The notes: generated by a model from the letters alone, not told the origin. 64,000 bases of DNA from Candidatus Hydrothermarchaeota archaeon (GCA_046760505.1 JBHIEG010000008.1:1-64000); one strand, 5' to 3'; counted from the first letter of the stretch, positions 3,164 to 45,656 are shown. Made by a program: numbers and translations.

Positions 3164-3766
3164 TCAATAAAAGATAAGCAACAAGAACACCATTATTGGA
3201 GTCATAAAGATTGATATTCCCAGAGAATAACCAAATTTAGTCGAATATTCAGAAAAAGAAAGTCTATACGCGATGTGGAATCCATCCGTCTCCTTACTTA
3301 TCAGAGATGATATCAAATAAAACATAAGAGAAACAAAGGCAAAACAACCTAAAAAGCCACTATTAAGAATATTTGAAAAAACATTCGCTAAAATGGAAAA
3401 TAAAAGATTAAATGTAGGACCTGCAGAATATATTTTTAGAATAGTCAGCATGTCTGCATTATCAAACGATTTTTCGTCAAATTCAATGCCGAACCCCTTC
3501 CAAAATAATTTGAAATTCTTGATTTTTACATTTTCGATGGAAGCAACTATAATATGCCCGGCTTCATGAACAAAAAAAGATAGTACAAAGGAGACAAGTA
3601 AATAGAAGAGGGATGCCGAGAAATTTATCGTTTTAAGCATGATTATAAAAATACTTATGGATAAAACGGGAAATATACTCAAGACGTTCAGCAAGCAGAT
3701 TAATCCAAGCAAATTTAAAACAGCATTGTATCTTATCGCCGATCCCGAATAAATTATATATCTCAT
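3164..3766 (-). CDS. Site-2 protease / M50-family membrane metallopeptidase
   Basis: Hydrophobic protein with HEAGH zinc motif, downstream AGP.FN and TDG motifs. Confidence 0.7.
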   Translation of the reverse strand: MRYIIYSGSAIRYNAVLNLLGLICLLNVLSIFPVLSISIFIIMLKTINFSASLFYLLVSFVLSFFVHEAGHIIVASIENVKIKNFKLFWKGFGIEFDEKSFDNADMLTILKIYSAGPTFNLLFSILANVFSNILNSGFLGCFAFVSLMFYLISSLISKETDGFHIAYRLSFSEYSTKFGYSLGISIFMTPIMVFLLLIFY

Positions 3767-41432: not shown

Positions 41433-42032
41433 CTAGCATTTTTCTCCTATTTTTCTTCCGTATTCGATTCCTGCTTTGACTGTTTTGAACAATTTTTCCC
41501 CAAAATCTCCGTAGCTTTCCAATAGAACCTTACTGATTGTTTCTTCATTGATAGATGGGAGAGAAAGAGAAACAGCCATGCCGAACAAGAACATGTTTCG
41601 AACCTTCGGTATATCCTCAATGTCTTTCATTGCCTCGTTTGTATCCACAAGAACAAGTCTAATCTTTTTTTTCTTGGCCTCATCTTTCACATCATTGAGC
41701 CAGTACTTCGATATTGGCGATGATGTATCTATAATTGCACAGCCACCCTCCGTCATCTCCTGAATGGAGTAGGCAGGTCTCCCGACGGGATCAATCATTA
41801 TCAGGGTTTCTGCACCCTCGGTTCTTTCAGTTGTGGCAATGGAAAACTTTTCCTCTCCAGTACCAAGAAACGGGGGAATCAACAATTTTCTCCCTACGGC
41901 TCCACCAGATTGAGGTTGAATTCTTCCAACAAGTTCATATCCTTCTTCTGCCATGACTTTAGCCATTATTTGAGTTATGTGAGTAAAACCACTTCCTTTG
42001 CTTCCAATTACAACTATATCTTTCCTTGACAT
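41433..42032 (-). CDS. 2-oxoacid:acceptor oxidoreductase gamma/IorB-like subunit (divergent)
   Basis: DIVVIGSKGSG..I..IMA, QSGGAV, KVRNMFLFG, C-terminal AGIEYG pattern of PorC/IorB. Confidence 0.6.
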   Translation of the reverse strand: MSRKDIVVIGSKGSGFTHITQIMAKVMAEEGYELVGRIQPQSGGAVGRKLLIPPFLGTGEEKFSIATTERTEGAETLIMIDPVGRPAYSIQEMTEGGCAIIDTSSPISKYWLNDVKDEAKKKKIRLVLVDTNEAMKDIEDIPKVRNMFLFGMAVSLSLPSINEETISKVLLESYGDFGEKLFKTVKAGIEYGRKIGEKC

Positions 42033-42036
42033 ACCA

Positions 42037-43176
42037 TCACTTCCTCAGCACCGTTGGTAAAGCAGTCTCCACAATTTCAGGCAGTGTGATAACATCCATT
42101 TCAACTTGAGCCTCTTTCACTCCATCTCTTAGATTCTTTTTGCAGAGTGGACAGGTGGTAACTATTGTAGTGGCATCAGTCTTCTTTGCCTGCATCACCC
42201 TAAGCCATGCAAGCCCCTTCATAGCCTCTCTCCGATGCAGTCTTAGAGATCCACCACAGCACCTTGTAAACCTCCCTTTTCTCAGCATTTCTTTCAGTCT
42301 CAATTTAGGTATTTTCCTAAGTACTTTCCTTGGTTCTTCAATTACCTTTAAAGGTCCGGTGACCAAGTGGCAGGAGTCATGATAAGTTACAAGCCTATCC
42401 ACGGGATTCTTAAACTCGAATACATTTTCCTCTAGGGCTCTAGCCATGATCTCAGAGTAGTGGAAGACCTCATAACTGGCGTCTCCTACTATGTACCCGT
42501 AGTCATGATCGAGGACCAAGTAACAGGTGGGACATAGAGTAACCACGAAATCAGGCTCATACTTCTCAAGATTTTCCACATTCTTTTTTGCCATTTCATC
42601 CACATCATTGTCGTGCACCCCGGCTCTTATCAAGATGGAGGTGCAACATGCTTCATCTTTAAATGCTTCCACATCCAAACCTATCATTTTCATTGTCTTG
42701 AGAGCAGCGATAGAAGAGTCAATGTCTTCGTAACTCATTACACAACCAGTAAATAGTAATCCCTTTCCGAAAAGATCTTTGCATGCAGAAGTAGATTCCA
42801 AGTCTACTTTTACCTTTTTTACCCAGTCCAGTCTCTTCTCCCTGTCGAAACCATATTTCTTCGGGTACGGATTTCCTCTTTCCATGAGATCATTCTTTAT
42901 TTCCAGGAGTCTTGGAATCGGTTTGTAAGTTCTTACGTCTTCAATCAGAGGAAATCCCGCGATTGCATAGGGGCATGAAACTTCACACGAATTGCAGTTC
43001 ATGCAGTAGGTTATCACTTCGTTCGCCTTCTCGTATTCGCCTATTCGCATATAGGTGTGCATGAGTCTCTTTGGTATGTCCACTGGACAGCGAACCTGGC
43101 ACATGGTGCATCCCACGCACTTTTTATGATATTCCATGATCTGCTCTGGAGTAAGGATTCTGCCTATGATGCTCAT
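42037..43176 (-). CDS. HdrD/GlcF-like Fe-S protein (2x[4Fe-4S] plus two CCG domains)
   Basis: CVGCTMCQVRCP, CMNCNSCEVSCP, FTGC..ACCTS..CPTC, YHDSCHL..RCCGG..CPLC. Confidence 0.88.
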   Translation of the reverse strand: MSIIGRILTPEQIMEYHKKCVGCTMCQVRCPVDIPKRLMHTYMRIGEYEKANEVITYCMNCNSCEVSCPYAIAGFPLIEDVRTYKPIPRLLEIKNDLMERGNPYPKKYGFDREKRLDWVKKVKVDLESTSACKDLFGKGLLFTGCVMSYEDIDSSIAALKTMKMIGLDVEAFKDEACCTSILIRAGVHDNDVDEMAKKNVENLEKYEPDFVVTLCPTCYLVLDHDYGYIVGDASYEVFHYSEIMARALEENVFEFKNPVDRLVTYHDSCHLVTGPLKVIEEPRKVLRKIPKLRLKEMLRKGRFTRCCGGSLRLHRREAMKGLAWLRVMQAKKTDATTIVTTCPLCKKNLRDGVKEAQVEMDVITLPEIVETALPTVLRK

Positions 43177-44198
43177 ATCACATCCACCTCTAGGAGTTTG
43201 GCGTTAATCTCTTGGAGCGCTCTTTTGGCGCTTCCAACCAGGGGCACATCAGCCATCTCTATGCTTGCTGCCAATGGATCCAAGTTGATAGATATCAGGC
43301 ACTCTGTCTCAAATTTAACCGCAAAAAGGTCCCAAGACATTCCAACCATAAAGGTCACCTCTGCCTCTACAAAAACCCCTGAACTCAGCCCGGTAGATAT
43401 AAAACCCTCTGTTTCTGGAAATTCTGATGCATGTCTAGTGCAGTAAAGACCCACTTCCTTGTTATATTTCTCTTTTAGTATCCTCGCCAGTTCTCTTACC
43501 TCTGTAACTGATTCTTCTCCTAGAACGGATGGCCACCCCGGTAACCCTCTGCGCGCTCTTTCAGCGCCCACTACTCCTTTACCGATGATTATCGCGACGC
43601 TATCAGCCATCTTTAAGTATTCTACCGCCTCTTCGATCCTAGAGGGATCCACATCTCCGGGAACAAAAGGTCGATCCCCTATAACGTTCAAATCTAGACT
43701 AGTTGCTCCCTGCATTGCTAGGTCTTCTGTTATGATTACCGCTACCAGCCTATGTTTGATGATGGTATCCTCAAACGCCTTTTTGATACTGCCAGATAAT
43801 TCAGCAATGCTTCTTGGAACATAAGTGATAACTCCAGATTCCTTTAACACAGTTGGCAGAGAAGCGGTGCACACATAAGATCCTCTCCCGTCTATATCAA
43901 GTCCAACGATAATCACCCCGGGAGTGCCTACCTCTTCTGTTATCAACTGATAAGCCACGTTAACCCCTTTGTCCTTGATAACAGCACAGCCTTTTTTCCC
44001 ACACTGACCTGCTCCAATAATTATGCCAACCGCGTCCGCTTCATTAGAAACAAACAGAACAGGAACGTCAGGTCCTAAGGCTCCATCCATTATCGCATTT
44101 TGAGCGGAATTTAATGGATATCCAGGTAGAAGCGTTACCACATCAGGCTTTATCTCCTTTAAGGTATCCACAATTATGTCGTTTCCAACTTTAAACAT
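43173..44198 (-). CDS. TPP-enzyme N-terminal (PYR) domain fused to an ALS/POX-like middle domain
   Basis: LLPGYP, SNEADAVG (conserved Glu), KDKGVNVA (IorA-like), IEEAVEYLKMADSVAIIIGKG and INLDP...ADVPLVGSAK. Confidence 0.7.
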   Translation of the reverse strand: MFKVGNDIIVDTLKEIKPDVVTLLPGYPLNSAQNAIMDGALGPDVPVLFVSNEADAVGIIIGAGQCGKKGCAVIKDKGVNVAYQLITEEVGTPGVIIVGLDIDGRGSYVCTASLPTVLKESGVITYVPRSIAELSGSIKKAFEDTIIKHRLVAVIITEDLAMQGATSLDLNVIGDRPFVPGDVDPSRIEEAVEYLKMADSVAIIIGKGVVGAERARRGLPGWPSVLGEESVTEVRELARILKEKYNKEVGLYCTRHASEFPETEGFISTGLSSGVFVEAEVTFMVGMSWDLFAVKFETECLISINLDPLAASIEMADVPLVGSAKRALQEINAKLLEVDVI

Positions 44199-44210
44199 AA
44201 CATTCCTCCA

Positions 44211-44738
44211 TTATAGCGAAAGACAATTTGCAATGATTAATTTCGTTCCCGGGATCTCTTTTGCATCTTTACATGCTTTTTCTAGTTCTTTATGGTCATA
44301 TACTGCCCTACAGTAAGGTAAATTTAGTGCTTTTCCCAATGCTTCGTAGTTTATTCCTAAAGATGTTGGAGTTATCCGTTGTCCTCCAGTCATGCTCCAA
44401 GAAGAATCGTTTAATACAATTACGGTTAATCTTTTGACTTTATCCGGATTCATGGCAGCGGTGATCAAAGAATTGAAGTGTAATCCAAAGCCACCATCGC
44501 CAACTATACAAAATATTTCCCCTTTAAAATTGTCATTAACTAAACTGTGACCCATTGCCACAGAAAGAGAGCCGCCAAGAGCTCCAGAACCACCGATGTA
44601 TTGTCTTTTGGGTATCCCACACATCAAAGATGCTATTGTATTGTCGCCAAGATCTACACAAACCCCGTCTTCATGATCCATCGCCTCAACCAATCCGACG
44701 AGGATATCGGGCATTTTTTGAAGTTTCTTTGCTTGCAT
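44211..44738 (-). CDS. TPP-binding (PP) domain subunit
   Basis: GALGGSL..AMG, GDG...LND TPP motif followed by MTGGQ. Confidence 0.85.
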   Translation of the reverse strand: MQAKKLQKMPDILVGLVEAMDHEDGVCVDLGDNTIASLMCGIPKRQYIGGSGALGGSLSVAMGHSLVNDNFKGEIFCIVGDGGFGLHFNSLITAAMNPDKVKRLTVIVLNDSSWSMTGGQRITPTSLGINYEALGKALNLPYCRAVYDHKELEKACKDAKEIPGTKLIIANCLSL

Positions 44739-44832
44739 ACATTCCCCCCCTTTGAAGAATGTAACTAAGACTTGGTGATGAAATAAAAAGATTTTCCAAA
44801 AGCCTTATATTCCCATACACCAATCTCGACTC

Positions 44833-45171
44833 ATGGAATGGATCCCGAAGTGGCTGGCAGATGTTTACCTAAAGTTATTCTCAGTATTCGGAACCGAAGA
44901 GTTCTCTACTCAGCTTGCAAAACATCTATTCGAAGATGATCAGGTATTTTTAAAGGCTCTTTCCGAACTGAAAATGAAGGGGTGGATAACACGGGTGAAA
45001 AAAGGGAGATACAAACTGATTGATTTAAAAGAGCTGGTATTTCAAATAACTCCAGAATTATCCATCGAAAACGTGGAAGAAAAGGTCAGAGAACGAAAGA
45101 AAATATCCAATGAATATATGATAAATCTATCATTTGAGATTCACGGGCTAGGGGGCTTGCCATGTACGTAG
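44833..45171 (+). CDS. Winged-helix DNA-binding protein (AbiEi-like/putative antitoxin or regulator)
   Basis: ALSELKMKGWITRVKKGRYKL wing motif; overlaps the downstream nucleotidyltransferase-like gene. Confidence 0.6.
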   Translation: MEWIPKWLADVYLKLFSVFGTEEFSTQLAKHLFEDDQVFLKALSELKMKGWITRVKKGRYKLIDLKELVFQITPELSIENVEEKVRERKKISNEYMINLSFEIHGLGGLPCT

Positions 45172-45656
45172 AAAAAATTTTATCGATTCTAAAATTATTC
45201 AGAGAAAAGAACATAGACTATGCCCTAGTTGGAGGATTATCCGGCATAATTCACGGAAGCCCCTACACCACTCCAGAGATTGAATTCGTGATATCAACGG
45301 ATCCTAGGAAAATAGAAAAGTATCTTGAAAGACTCGGCTGGAAAAAGGAAAATGATTACTATATTCATAAAACCCTGAAAATACCTCTAAAATTGTACAC
45401 AGACTATAGAGGATTTAATTTAAACAAAAACGTGAAAATAGTCAAGGCTAAGCTAAGGAATAACGAAATAAAGGTTAACTCCCCGGAAGATTATGTGATA
45501 ACTACCGCAAAAGGTGGCTCTCTTGAAGAACTTCATAGAGGTATAGCAGTTCTTATTGCAAACAAAAAATCATTGGACAGAGATTACCTGATCAGAAGAG
45601 CAGGTGAAGAAGGAGTTAAGGAAAGAATCTTGTTCATTTTGAATAAAATTTTGTAG
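45162..45656 (+). CDS. Nucleotidyltransferase-fold protein (DUF6036/AbiEii-like), degenerate active site
   Basis: YALVGGLS.IIHG.P.TT.EIEFVI, SPEDYVI..K, LDRDYL..RA. Confidence 0.6.
   Translation: MYVEKILSILKLFREKNIDYALVGGLSGIIHGSPYTTPEIEFVISTDPRKIEKYLERLGWKKENDYYIHKTLKIPLKLYTDYRGFNLNKNVKIVKAKLRNNEIKVNSPEDYVITTAKGGSLEELHRGIAVLIANKKSLDRDYLIRRAGEEGVKERILFILNKIL

Follow-up and report, generated by a model that had tools for sequence, protein, structure and literature searches.

A four-gene archaeal cassette that may couple a chimeric thiamine diphosphate enzyme to an HdrD-like iron-sulfur protein

A window of 64,000 nucleotides from a Candidatus Hydrothermarchaeota archaeon (GCA_046760505.1, JBHIEG010000008.1:1-64000) was analyzed as a whole stretch. 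On its minus strand, at positions 41433-44738, it contains an operon of four genes. In the order in which they would be transcribed, these genes encode a free diphosphate-binding (PP) domain of a thiamine diphosphate (TPP) enzyme; a protein termed PYR-M, where the PYR domain of such an enzyme is followed by a middle domain; an iron-sulfur protein with two CCG domains that resembles HdrD and TfrB; and a divergent subunit of the gamma type found in 2-oxoacid:ferredoxin oxidoreductases (OFORs). The coordinates of the corresponding open reading frames (ORFs) are collected in Table 1. The reading put forward here, tentatively, is that the four products form one soluble, chimeric 2-oxoacid oxidoreductase whose electrons leave through the HdrD-like subunit, likely toward a disulfide or another unusual acceptor.

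Table 1. Features of the operon in the window, and positions of a conserved protein encoded upstream of PP in Methanopyri-type loci
Feature	Location	Strand	Length	Basis
PP subunit, free TPP diphosphate-binding domain	44211..44738	-	175 aa	ORF and PF02775
PYR-M subunit (PYR and middle domain)	43173..44198	-	341 aa	ORF and family matches
CCG protein, HdrD/TfrB-like iron-sulfur subunit	42037..43176	-	379 aa	ORF and PF02754
Gamma, divergent OFOR gamma-type subunit	41433..42032	-	199 aa	ORF and PF01558
Operon upstream region, possible promoter and ribosome-binding site	44741..44790	-		Sequence reading alone
132-134-aa protein, L003	2941-3339	-
132-134-aa protein, L004	2917-3315	-
132-134-aa protein, L011	3898-4302
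132-134-aa protein, L012	4833-5237
132-134-aa protein, L015	4747-5184

The operon and its distribution

The four genes are tightly packed: PP and PYR-M are separated by 12 nt, PYR-M and CCG overlap by 4 nt, and CCG and gamma lie 4 nt apart. Comparable packing is observed in the homologous loci L008, L009 and L010. Downstream, the neighboring gene trpA is convergent with the operon, and the upstream neighbors are two small plus-strand ORFs that diverge from it; thus, the unit consists of exactly four genes. As homologs with 41-88% identity are found in the same order in other genomes, these are four real genes and not chance ORFs. In the possible promoter region, a T/A-rich, TATA-like stretch can be read at approximately 44781-44790, and a run of G at 44744-44750 lies just ahead of the ATG of PP. 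No RNA run is listed as containing the stretch; four DNA runs of one study contain it and may be its source. The GC content is 0.446 in the bin that covers 42001-44000, versus 0.378-0.388 two bins away on both sides. A hydropathy scan finds no hydrophobic stretch of transmembrane strength in any of the four proteins, and no cytochrome b, membrane or sulfur-transfer gene lies within the cassette.

The family is rare. In a library of 5.8 billion proteins, PYR-M has six matches of near length at E up to 1e-3, itself included. Among 1.84 billion cluster representatives, phmmer without a length limit finds three matches, two of them at 59% and 39% identity and the third an IorA-like protein, and no fused form of the core was seen. 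The IorA-like protein (E 3.5e-4) is the sole match of the PYR domain outside its own family in this collection. When 41 genomes around that of the host (G000) are sampled, a PYR-M match at E up to 1e-3 is present in seven. It is strong (E 1e-55 or lower) in four of them, namely G000, its sister G001, G037 and G014; the other three are weak, partial matches in long ORFs. When 185,579 species genomes were scanned with a pattern, eight of 192 candidate stretches were confirmed as loci, and a scan of metagenomes confirmed five of 374 candidates. With approximately a dozen loci in such very large collections, the ecological weight of the family is probably small.

Loci of the cassette type have a PYR-M that is 55-88% identical to that of the window. 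Where there is enough downstream DNA, PP, PYR-M, CCG and gamma are found in the same order in five of five such loci (the window, L008, L016, L009 and L010). L017 and L018 end inside PYR-M and are left out of this count; L018 has PP upstream, and this partial record (P0006/L018), from a metagenome-assembled genome (MAG) labeled Thermoprotei, adds to the cassette lineages. Since L008 and L016 represent the genus-level relative of the window, the complete cassette occurs in three independent lineages: the window's own genus, L009 (a MAG labeled Methanocellales) and L010 (a Bathyarchaeota MAG). Identity to the window in L008, L009 and L010 is, respectively, 87%, 70% and 57% for PP; 88%, 59% and 55% for PYR-M; 88%, 49% and 41% for CCG; and 85%, 55% and 45% for gamma. 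The patchy spread over distant archaeal lineages, together with the slightly raised GC content of the operon, would fit transfer of the whole cassette.

The genes that flank the cassette differ between these lineages. The trpA and trpB genes are beside it only in the window's own genus (L008), a DJ-1/PfpI gene and a GNAT gene are found in L009, and an M42 peptidase and a CBS protein in L010. Thus, the trp neighborhood is incidental. An earlier note, made from the sequence of this DNA, had taken the proximity of trp and aro genes as a weak hint that aryl-pyruvates are the substrates. This part of it is not supported, and a link to tryptophan or aromatic metabolism was rejected in view of the unrelated flanks of L009 and L010. 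The same note had described the four-gene operon itself, with a 12-nt gap, an ATGA overlap and a 4-nt gap, and had listed GDG...ND, TGGQ and GSKGSG motifs, two 4Fe-4S motifs and two CCG motifs. The ORFs lie exactly at the positions that it had given, all of these motifs are present in the translations, and the association with a CCG gene, on which its proposal hinged, recurs in all five informative cassette-type loci.

With respect to the surroundings, the two small ORFs that are divergent from the operon (window 44833-45656, plus strand) overlap each other, encode 112 and 164 aa and have no Pfam match. A homolog of the first is found near the L008 cassette (3346-3675, minus strand), with other genes in between.

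Domain content of the subunits and predicted docking

The PP subunit matches PF02775 (E 4.1e-16; 59.6 bits versus a cut-off of 21.9). It carries GDGG at 80-83, D111 and MTGGQ at 116-120, and an alignment of nine sequences shows G80-D81-G82-G83 and D111 to be invariant in all of them. Its best named NCBIfam matches are ComE (9.3e-10), phosphonopyruvate decarboxylase (2.7e-8) and IOR_alpha (3.7e-8), all far under their cut-offs. A maximum-likelihood tree of 17 rows was built from five cassette PP domains, three of the Methanopyri type (see below), seven G000 paralogs, and, from G037, ComE plus one protein that is similar to acetolactate synthase (ALS). In this tree, the cassette and Methanopyri-type PP domains form a single clade (support 95/94). 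The clade falls on the side of ComE and OFOR-beta/IorA, and a 100/99 branch separates four ALS-like PP domains; the tree does not resolve the three-way order among this clade, ComE and OFOR, and long branches were flagged. The beta subunits of OFORs carry a proximal [4Fe-4S] site bound by four cysteines. Such a site is not conserved in PP, where only C77 and C172 are invariant among the nine sequences. Consequently, the classical OFOR radical route via the proximal cluster is unlikely, and a flavin route would be needed.

In PYR-M, residues 3-86 match IOR_alpha (E 1.8e-5) and residues 9-157 match ComD (E 8.1e-4). Residues 271-330 match PF00205 (E 3.2e-5; 24.1 bits, cut-off 30.4), and the C-terminal half also weakly matches ALS-like models. 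Glu53 of the PYR domain is invariant in eight of eight sequences and, judging from its position, would be the catalytic glutamate that activates the cofactor. In the middle domain, G206-K207-G208 and G211 are invariant. When a profile of the eight-member family is compared with the PDB, the middle domain of PoxB (3eya, E 2.1e-4) and the flavin adenine dinucleotide (FAD) domains of ETF-alpha (E 1.5e-3 to 3.2e-3) are matched. A flavin or an adenine nucleotide is probably bound in the middle domain. A Foldseek search with the AlphaFold model of PYR-M (predicted local distance difference test, pLDDT, 77.3; predicted template-modeling score, pTM, 0.53) returns PQO (9ev5), HACS (8vzc), AHAS (8et5), POX (1pow) and OXC, at E of approximately 1e-13 over approximately 370 columns. 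The root-mean-square deviation of these alignments is 16-17 A because the mutual orientation of the PYR and middle domains is uncertain, and the individual folds are supported.

Gamma matches PF01558 (E 1.7e-7; 32 bits, over the cut-off of 27.4) and, in NCBIfam, OAFO_sf (5.9e-7) and IorB (7.6e-4). In place of the expected GxGGQG, residues 10-15 read GSKGSG, which is invariant in four of four sequences. The best folds for its model (pLDDT 84.8; pTM 0.85) are PorC (2raa), an OFOR gamma subunit (3on3) and the gamma subunit of M. acetivorans PFOR (9bt4), with TM of 0.47-0.56; the nucleotide-binding domains of Mur ligases rank next. At the level of sequence, gamma has no match in the PDB at E up to 1. 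Its homologs were found only in cassettes (three proteins by search, and L010 by BLASTP). By analogy with OFORs, gamma probably binds coenzyme A (CoA).

Could the operon then encode an ordinary ferredoxin-dependent variant of OFOR or IOR, where the CCG protein has replaced the delta ferredoxin subunit? Although the gamma subunit, the IorA-like PYR domain, the position of PP on the OFOR/ComE side and the two ferredoxin-type motifs of the CCG protein (see below) are in line with this possibility, the list of matches at E up to 0.1 does not include PF01855 (POR_N), PP is devoid of the conserved four-cysteine site, and the middle domain is of the POX/ETF type. In addition, IOR_alpha (TIGR03336) reaches 23.3 and 32.2 bits versus a cut-off of 650.9, and a delta subunit would have no need of two full CCG domains. 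An identity as IOR or OFOR was rejected on the basis of these low scores, the PF01855 result and the lack of the four-cysteine site. This variant is the weakest of the rival explanations and seems quite improbable.

The CCG protein matches PF02754 in two stretches (E 7.2e-26), in addition to 4Fe-4S dicluster families. It aligns with the C-terminal part of TfrB (residues 134-486; E 5.2e-42; 144 bits versus a cut-off of 385) and reaches 32.9 bits with the HdrB model, versus a cut-off of 345. It also matches the NCBIfam models for LdhH (4e-35) and GlpC (9.8e-22), and its closest solved relative is mycobacterial EtfD (9ojn, E 5.8e-23). Two ferredoxin-type CX2CX2CX3CP motifs (C20-C30 and C58-C68) are followed by two five-cysteine CCG motifs (C145/C177/C178/C215/C218 and C269/C306/C307/C342/C345). 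All 18 cysteines of these motifs, ten of them in the CCG motifs, are invariant in four of four sequences; within the first CCG motif, the window has CCT where L009 and L010 have CCG. Since all ten CCG cysteines are kept, the CCG domains are expected to be more than a scaffold. The maximum hydropathy of the protein is 0.94, with no transmembrane segment. In L010 (8003-8100), the first ferredoxin-type cysteine motif lies upstream of the first ATG, GTG or TTG; the frame that contains it is open and overlaps the end of PYR-M. The CCG gene of this locus could have a non-canonical start, as ATT or ATA codons are present, or could contain an assembly error.

A complex was predicted for PYR-M and PP, with FAD riding along and the CCG protein as the partner; the proteins were entered as family alignments, and the riding FAD was not scored. 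The docking score of the CCG protein is 0.68, and the best of three controls gave 0.00. Of 157 solved complexes, 116 reach this mark, as do 2 of 215 mismatched pairs; both figures are approximate in this case, since the job relied on our own alignments and included FAD. At least 93% of contacts are shared between runs, and the partner has a pLDDT of at least 86. On the CCG side, the regions of the two ferredoxin-type motifs contribute residues 20-28, 35-45, 67 and 69 to the interface, and a patch next to the second CCG motif contributes residues 298-305 and 329-333. On the core side, it comprises residues 194-198 and 280-317 of the middle domain and residues 7-17 and 35-44 of PP. In the model, the interface sits where a cofactor of the middle domain would face the clusters. 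The prediction supports, and does not prove, that the CCG protein docks on the middle domain and the PP subunit. To our knowledge, no complex between a TPP enzyme and an HdrD-type protein has been solved, and PDB searches with the cassette proteins also showed none; thus, it seems unlikely that the predicted docking reproduces a known structure.

Taken together, the tree, profile and fold matches agree with the chimeric core that the earlier note had described, with PP and PYR domains of the ComDE/IOR kind and a middle domain of the POX/ETF kind.

Nevertheless, a CCG protein in this position might be merely a relay. In this case, the four subunits would form the same oxidoreductase, the HdrD-like subunit would work as in EtfD, GlpC, GlcF and LutA, and the electrons would end not on a disulfide but on ferredoxin, on another redox protein, or on a quinone or membrane partner encoded elsewhere. 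Among solved structures, EtfD is closest to the CCG subunit; the middle domain is similar to the FAD domain of ETF-alpha, and the matches to LdhH and GlpC are to subunits of quinone-linked dehydrogenases. As described in PMC13083937, EtfD relays electrons from ETF to menaquinone, with a modeled separation of 11.6-12.5 A between the flavin and the CCG-bound clusters; the cubane clusters serve as the exit for the electrons. The predicted interface beside the second CCG motif would fit a similar entry of electrons at the CCG clusters. Against this explanation, none of the four proteins has a transmembrane segment, and the cassette contains no cytochrome b or membrane gene. Also, every one of the ten CCG cysteines is retained, as is the case in Hdr, and ferredoxin reduction is already served in the host by four canonical OFOR sets. 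On balance, a relay, which is the main rival reading, appears somewhat unlikely.

Core-only relatives, hosts and the proposed reaction

Relatives of the Methanopyri type conserve the core formed by PP and PYR-M at 35-40% identity, with the same invariant residues, and are sister to the cassette sequences in the PP tree. The two hosts of this type that were tested (G043 and G044) have McrA. PP lies beside or near PYR-M in five of eight loci (L003, L004, L011, L012 and L015), and PYR-M stands alone in L013, L019 and L020. Directly upstream of PP, all five loci that hold it encode a conserved protein of 132-134 aa (Table 1), for which there is no Pfam match and a weak Atlas lead (0.86) to the mobile (swivel) domains of phosphoenolpyruvate utilizers. 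This protein, which was not found in G000, may be a partner of the core-only enzyme. In L012 (5733-6991), from a MAG labeled Methanobacteriota, PP and PYR-M are approximately 1.26 kb apart, and the insert holds minus-strand ORFs; a similar gap is observed in L011 and L015, and the two genes abut or overlap in G037 and G014. These relatives mark an uncharacterized TPP enzyme in methanogens.

The existence of relatives that keep only PP and PYR-M would also fit a TPP core with a non-redox activity, such as a decarboxylase, carboligase or lyase comparable to ComDE or HACL. The CCG protein and gamma would then perform a later thiol step; for instance, they could convert an aldehyde product into a thiol or act on a thioester as part of sulfur-cofactor synthesis. 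Sulfopyruvate and phosphonopyruvate decarboxylases give the best named matches of PP, and the CoA-dependent lyases HACS/HACL and OXC are among the fold matches, but the scores for ComD (TIGR03845; 19.3 versus 147.95 bits) and ComE (TIGR03846; 38.7 versus 221.5 bits) are far under their cut-offs. Moreover, canonical ComD and ComE are encoded elsewhere in the genomes of G037 and G014, so the family is not simply ComDE, and this identity was rejected. Neither ComD nor ComE was found above its cut-off in G000 or G001. Also against this explanation, the cassette has no sulfur-transfer gene, and McrA was not found in G000, which is rated 100% complete with 5.67% contamination, or in G041 and G042, the completeness of both of which is not known. 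Finally, ferredoxin-type clusters docked on the middle domain, as modeled, would fit electron transfer better than two separate reactions. A non-redox core is therefore a distinctly unlikely explanation of the cassette.

Regarding the redox equipment of the hosts, G000 contains four canonical OFOR/IOR gene sets and a fifth, divergent one on another contig. HdrD-like matches number 14 in G000, 19 in G001, 16 in G041 and 7 in G042, and the CCG protein of the cassette is a separate paralog among the 14 of G000. This genome also has TfrA (806 bits versus a cut-off of 718), TfrB (458 versus 385), an HdrA2-like protein and CdhA. The host is thus equipped with thiol/disulfide machinery, which speaks for the reading proposed here, and a heterodisulfide of coenzymes M and B (CoM and CoB) is plausible in it.

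Two other regions of the G000 genome combine HdrD-like genes with further redox genes. At G000:C7:43297-56583 (L022), TfrA and TfrB are encoded near an HdrD-like gene, an HdrA2-like protein and a fused HdrB/C-like protein of 627 aa; the neighbor of this HdrD-like gene encodes a protein of 271 aa that has no family match and is a possible membrane partner. At G000:C7:25027-31738 (L021), the gene for a GlcD-like FAD oxidase (479 aa) precedes those for an HdrD-like protein (358 aa) and a LarA-like protein (417 aa). The opposite strand of L021 carries a second divergent, OFOR-like set of three genes, with an alpha subunit of 429 aa, a PP subunit of 306 aa with cysteine-rich ends and a gamma subunit of 231 aa whose match to PF01558 is limited to the first 73 positions.

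If the four subunits do form a single soluble 2-oxoacid oxidoreductase, which is the tentative reading favored here, PP and PYR-M would rebuild a TPP enzyme of the POX/PQO type from the products of two separate genes, PP being the first and PYR-M the second, and TPP would be held at the interface of PYR and PP. A 2-oxoacid would be oxidatively decarboxylated on TPP, and a flavin in the middle domain would take the two electrons, as in PoxB and PQO. In favor of this flavin step, the top sequence matches of the middle domain are the FAD-binding PoxB and the FAD domain of ETF-alpha. Gamma would supply CoA, with the acyl group kept as a thioester that would leave as acyl-CoA. The electrons would pass from the middle domain to the HdrC-like clusters and from these to the HdrB-like, noncubane clusters of the CCG domains. 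In turn, the latter would most likely reduce a disulfide, be it a heterodisulfide similar to CoM-S-S-CoB or another low-molecular or protein disulfide.

Such an enzyme would constitute a new class, a 2-oxoacid:disulfide oxidoreductase, where TPP and an OFOR-type gamma subunit are wired by a flavin directly to noncubane clusters of the Hdr type; this stronger proposal is possible but rather doubtful. If it were true, the oxidation of 2-oxoacids would regenerate thiols, either a pair similar to CoM and CoB or another one, and bypass ferredoxin in archaea that are MCR-less and rich in Hdr. More broadly, if the complex works as the tentative reading has it, anaerobic archaea would have a new outlet for 2-oxoacid oxidation, and one of the numerous HdrD-like orphans in non-methanogenic archaea would gain a defined electron donor. 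In that case, the cassette would also offer a small soluble system for the study of electron entry into CCG clusters.

Several observations weigh against the tentative reading. With respect to the acceptor, CCG proteins are not always disulfide reductases, EtfD being one example. TfrB above its cut-off was found in G037 but not in the sister genome G001 or in the cassette hosts G041 and G042; thus, the heterodisulfide of CoM and CoB is not the common denominator of the cassette hosts, and its presence is not established for them in general. With respect to the cofactors, gamma is divergent and its glycine motif is altered. The match of the middle domain to PF00205 is under the cut-off, and its fold matches include ADP-binding (OXC, HACS) and cofactor-free (AlsS) domains besides those that bind FAD. 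In the predicted complex, residues adjacent to C306/C307 are likewise part of the interface, and electrons might flow in either direction. Finally, none of the eight Methanopyri-type loci (L003, L004, L011, L012, L013, L015, L019 and L020) has a CCG or gamma homolog, a count where L011 has only approximately 0.8 kb downstream and from which the fragment L014 is left out. A search with the gamma of the window did not find gamma anywhere in the genomes of G037 and G014, and the closest CCG-like match in G037, approximately 290 kb away, is the TfrB of that genome (614 bits, over the cut-off). As these relatives work without CCG or gamma, the TPP core may be a non-redox decarboxylase or ligase.

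Comparison with known systems

The four modules of the cassette are well known individually, and the combination of a POX-type TPP core with an OFOR gamma subunit and an HdrD-type CCG protein is new to the literature searched. In the PDB and in the full-text literature, with subscription journals outside the search, no structure, paper or characterized complex was found where a TPP enzyme is joined to an HdrD-like protein.

The FAD- and TPP-dependent pyruvate oxidases PoxB of E. coli (3eya/3ey9), PQO of Corynebacterium (9ev5) and POX of Lactobacillus (1pow) have the same set of PYR, middle and PP domains as the cassette. PoxB is the best PDB sequence match of the middle domain, and PQO and POX are top fold matches. 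As in PoxB and PQO, the enzyme of the cassette would pass its electrons to an acceptor other than ferredoxin. In contrast to these enzymes, the cassette splits these domains between two genes, with PP first; its PP falls outside the ALS-like clade, and its PYR domain is IorA-like. It is also devoid of a membrane-binding tail, contains gamma and CCG as extra subunits, and has FAD as a putative cofactor.

The cassette is like OFORs and IorAB in that it includes a gamma-type subunit with the PorC fold, its PYR domain is IorA-like and its PP domain groups on the OFOR/ComE side. By contrast, the cassette lacks the four-cysteine site in PP and has a CCG protein in place of the delta ferredoxin subunit. 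Moreover, OFORs have domain II where the cassette has a middle domain of the POX type. ComDE and phosphonopyruvate decarboxylase are, like the cassette, TPP enzymes that are split into PYR and PP proteins. However, ComDE has no middle domain, and its gene order is the reverse of the PP-first order observed here.

Finally, the CCG protein shares its two ferredoxin-type clusters and two CCG domains with HdrD, the C-terminal part of TfrB, HdrBC and EtfD (9OJN). With all ten CCG cysteines, it resembles Hdr; EtfD differs in that one of its domains has four ligands and contains a linear 3Fe-4S cluster (PMC13083937). The partner is also different, as the cassette has a TPP enzyme instead of HdrA, HdrE, TfrA or ETF, includes no HdrE-like or TfrA-like gene and has no membrane part. 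Nevertheless, the overall arrangement would be a familiar one: in HdrABC and ETF:EtfD (PMC13083937), a flavoprotein module feeds a chain of clusters, and the core of the cassette would feed its own chain in the same manner.

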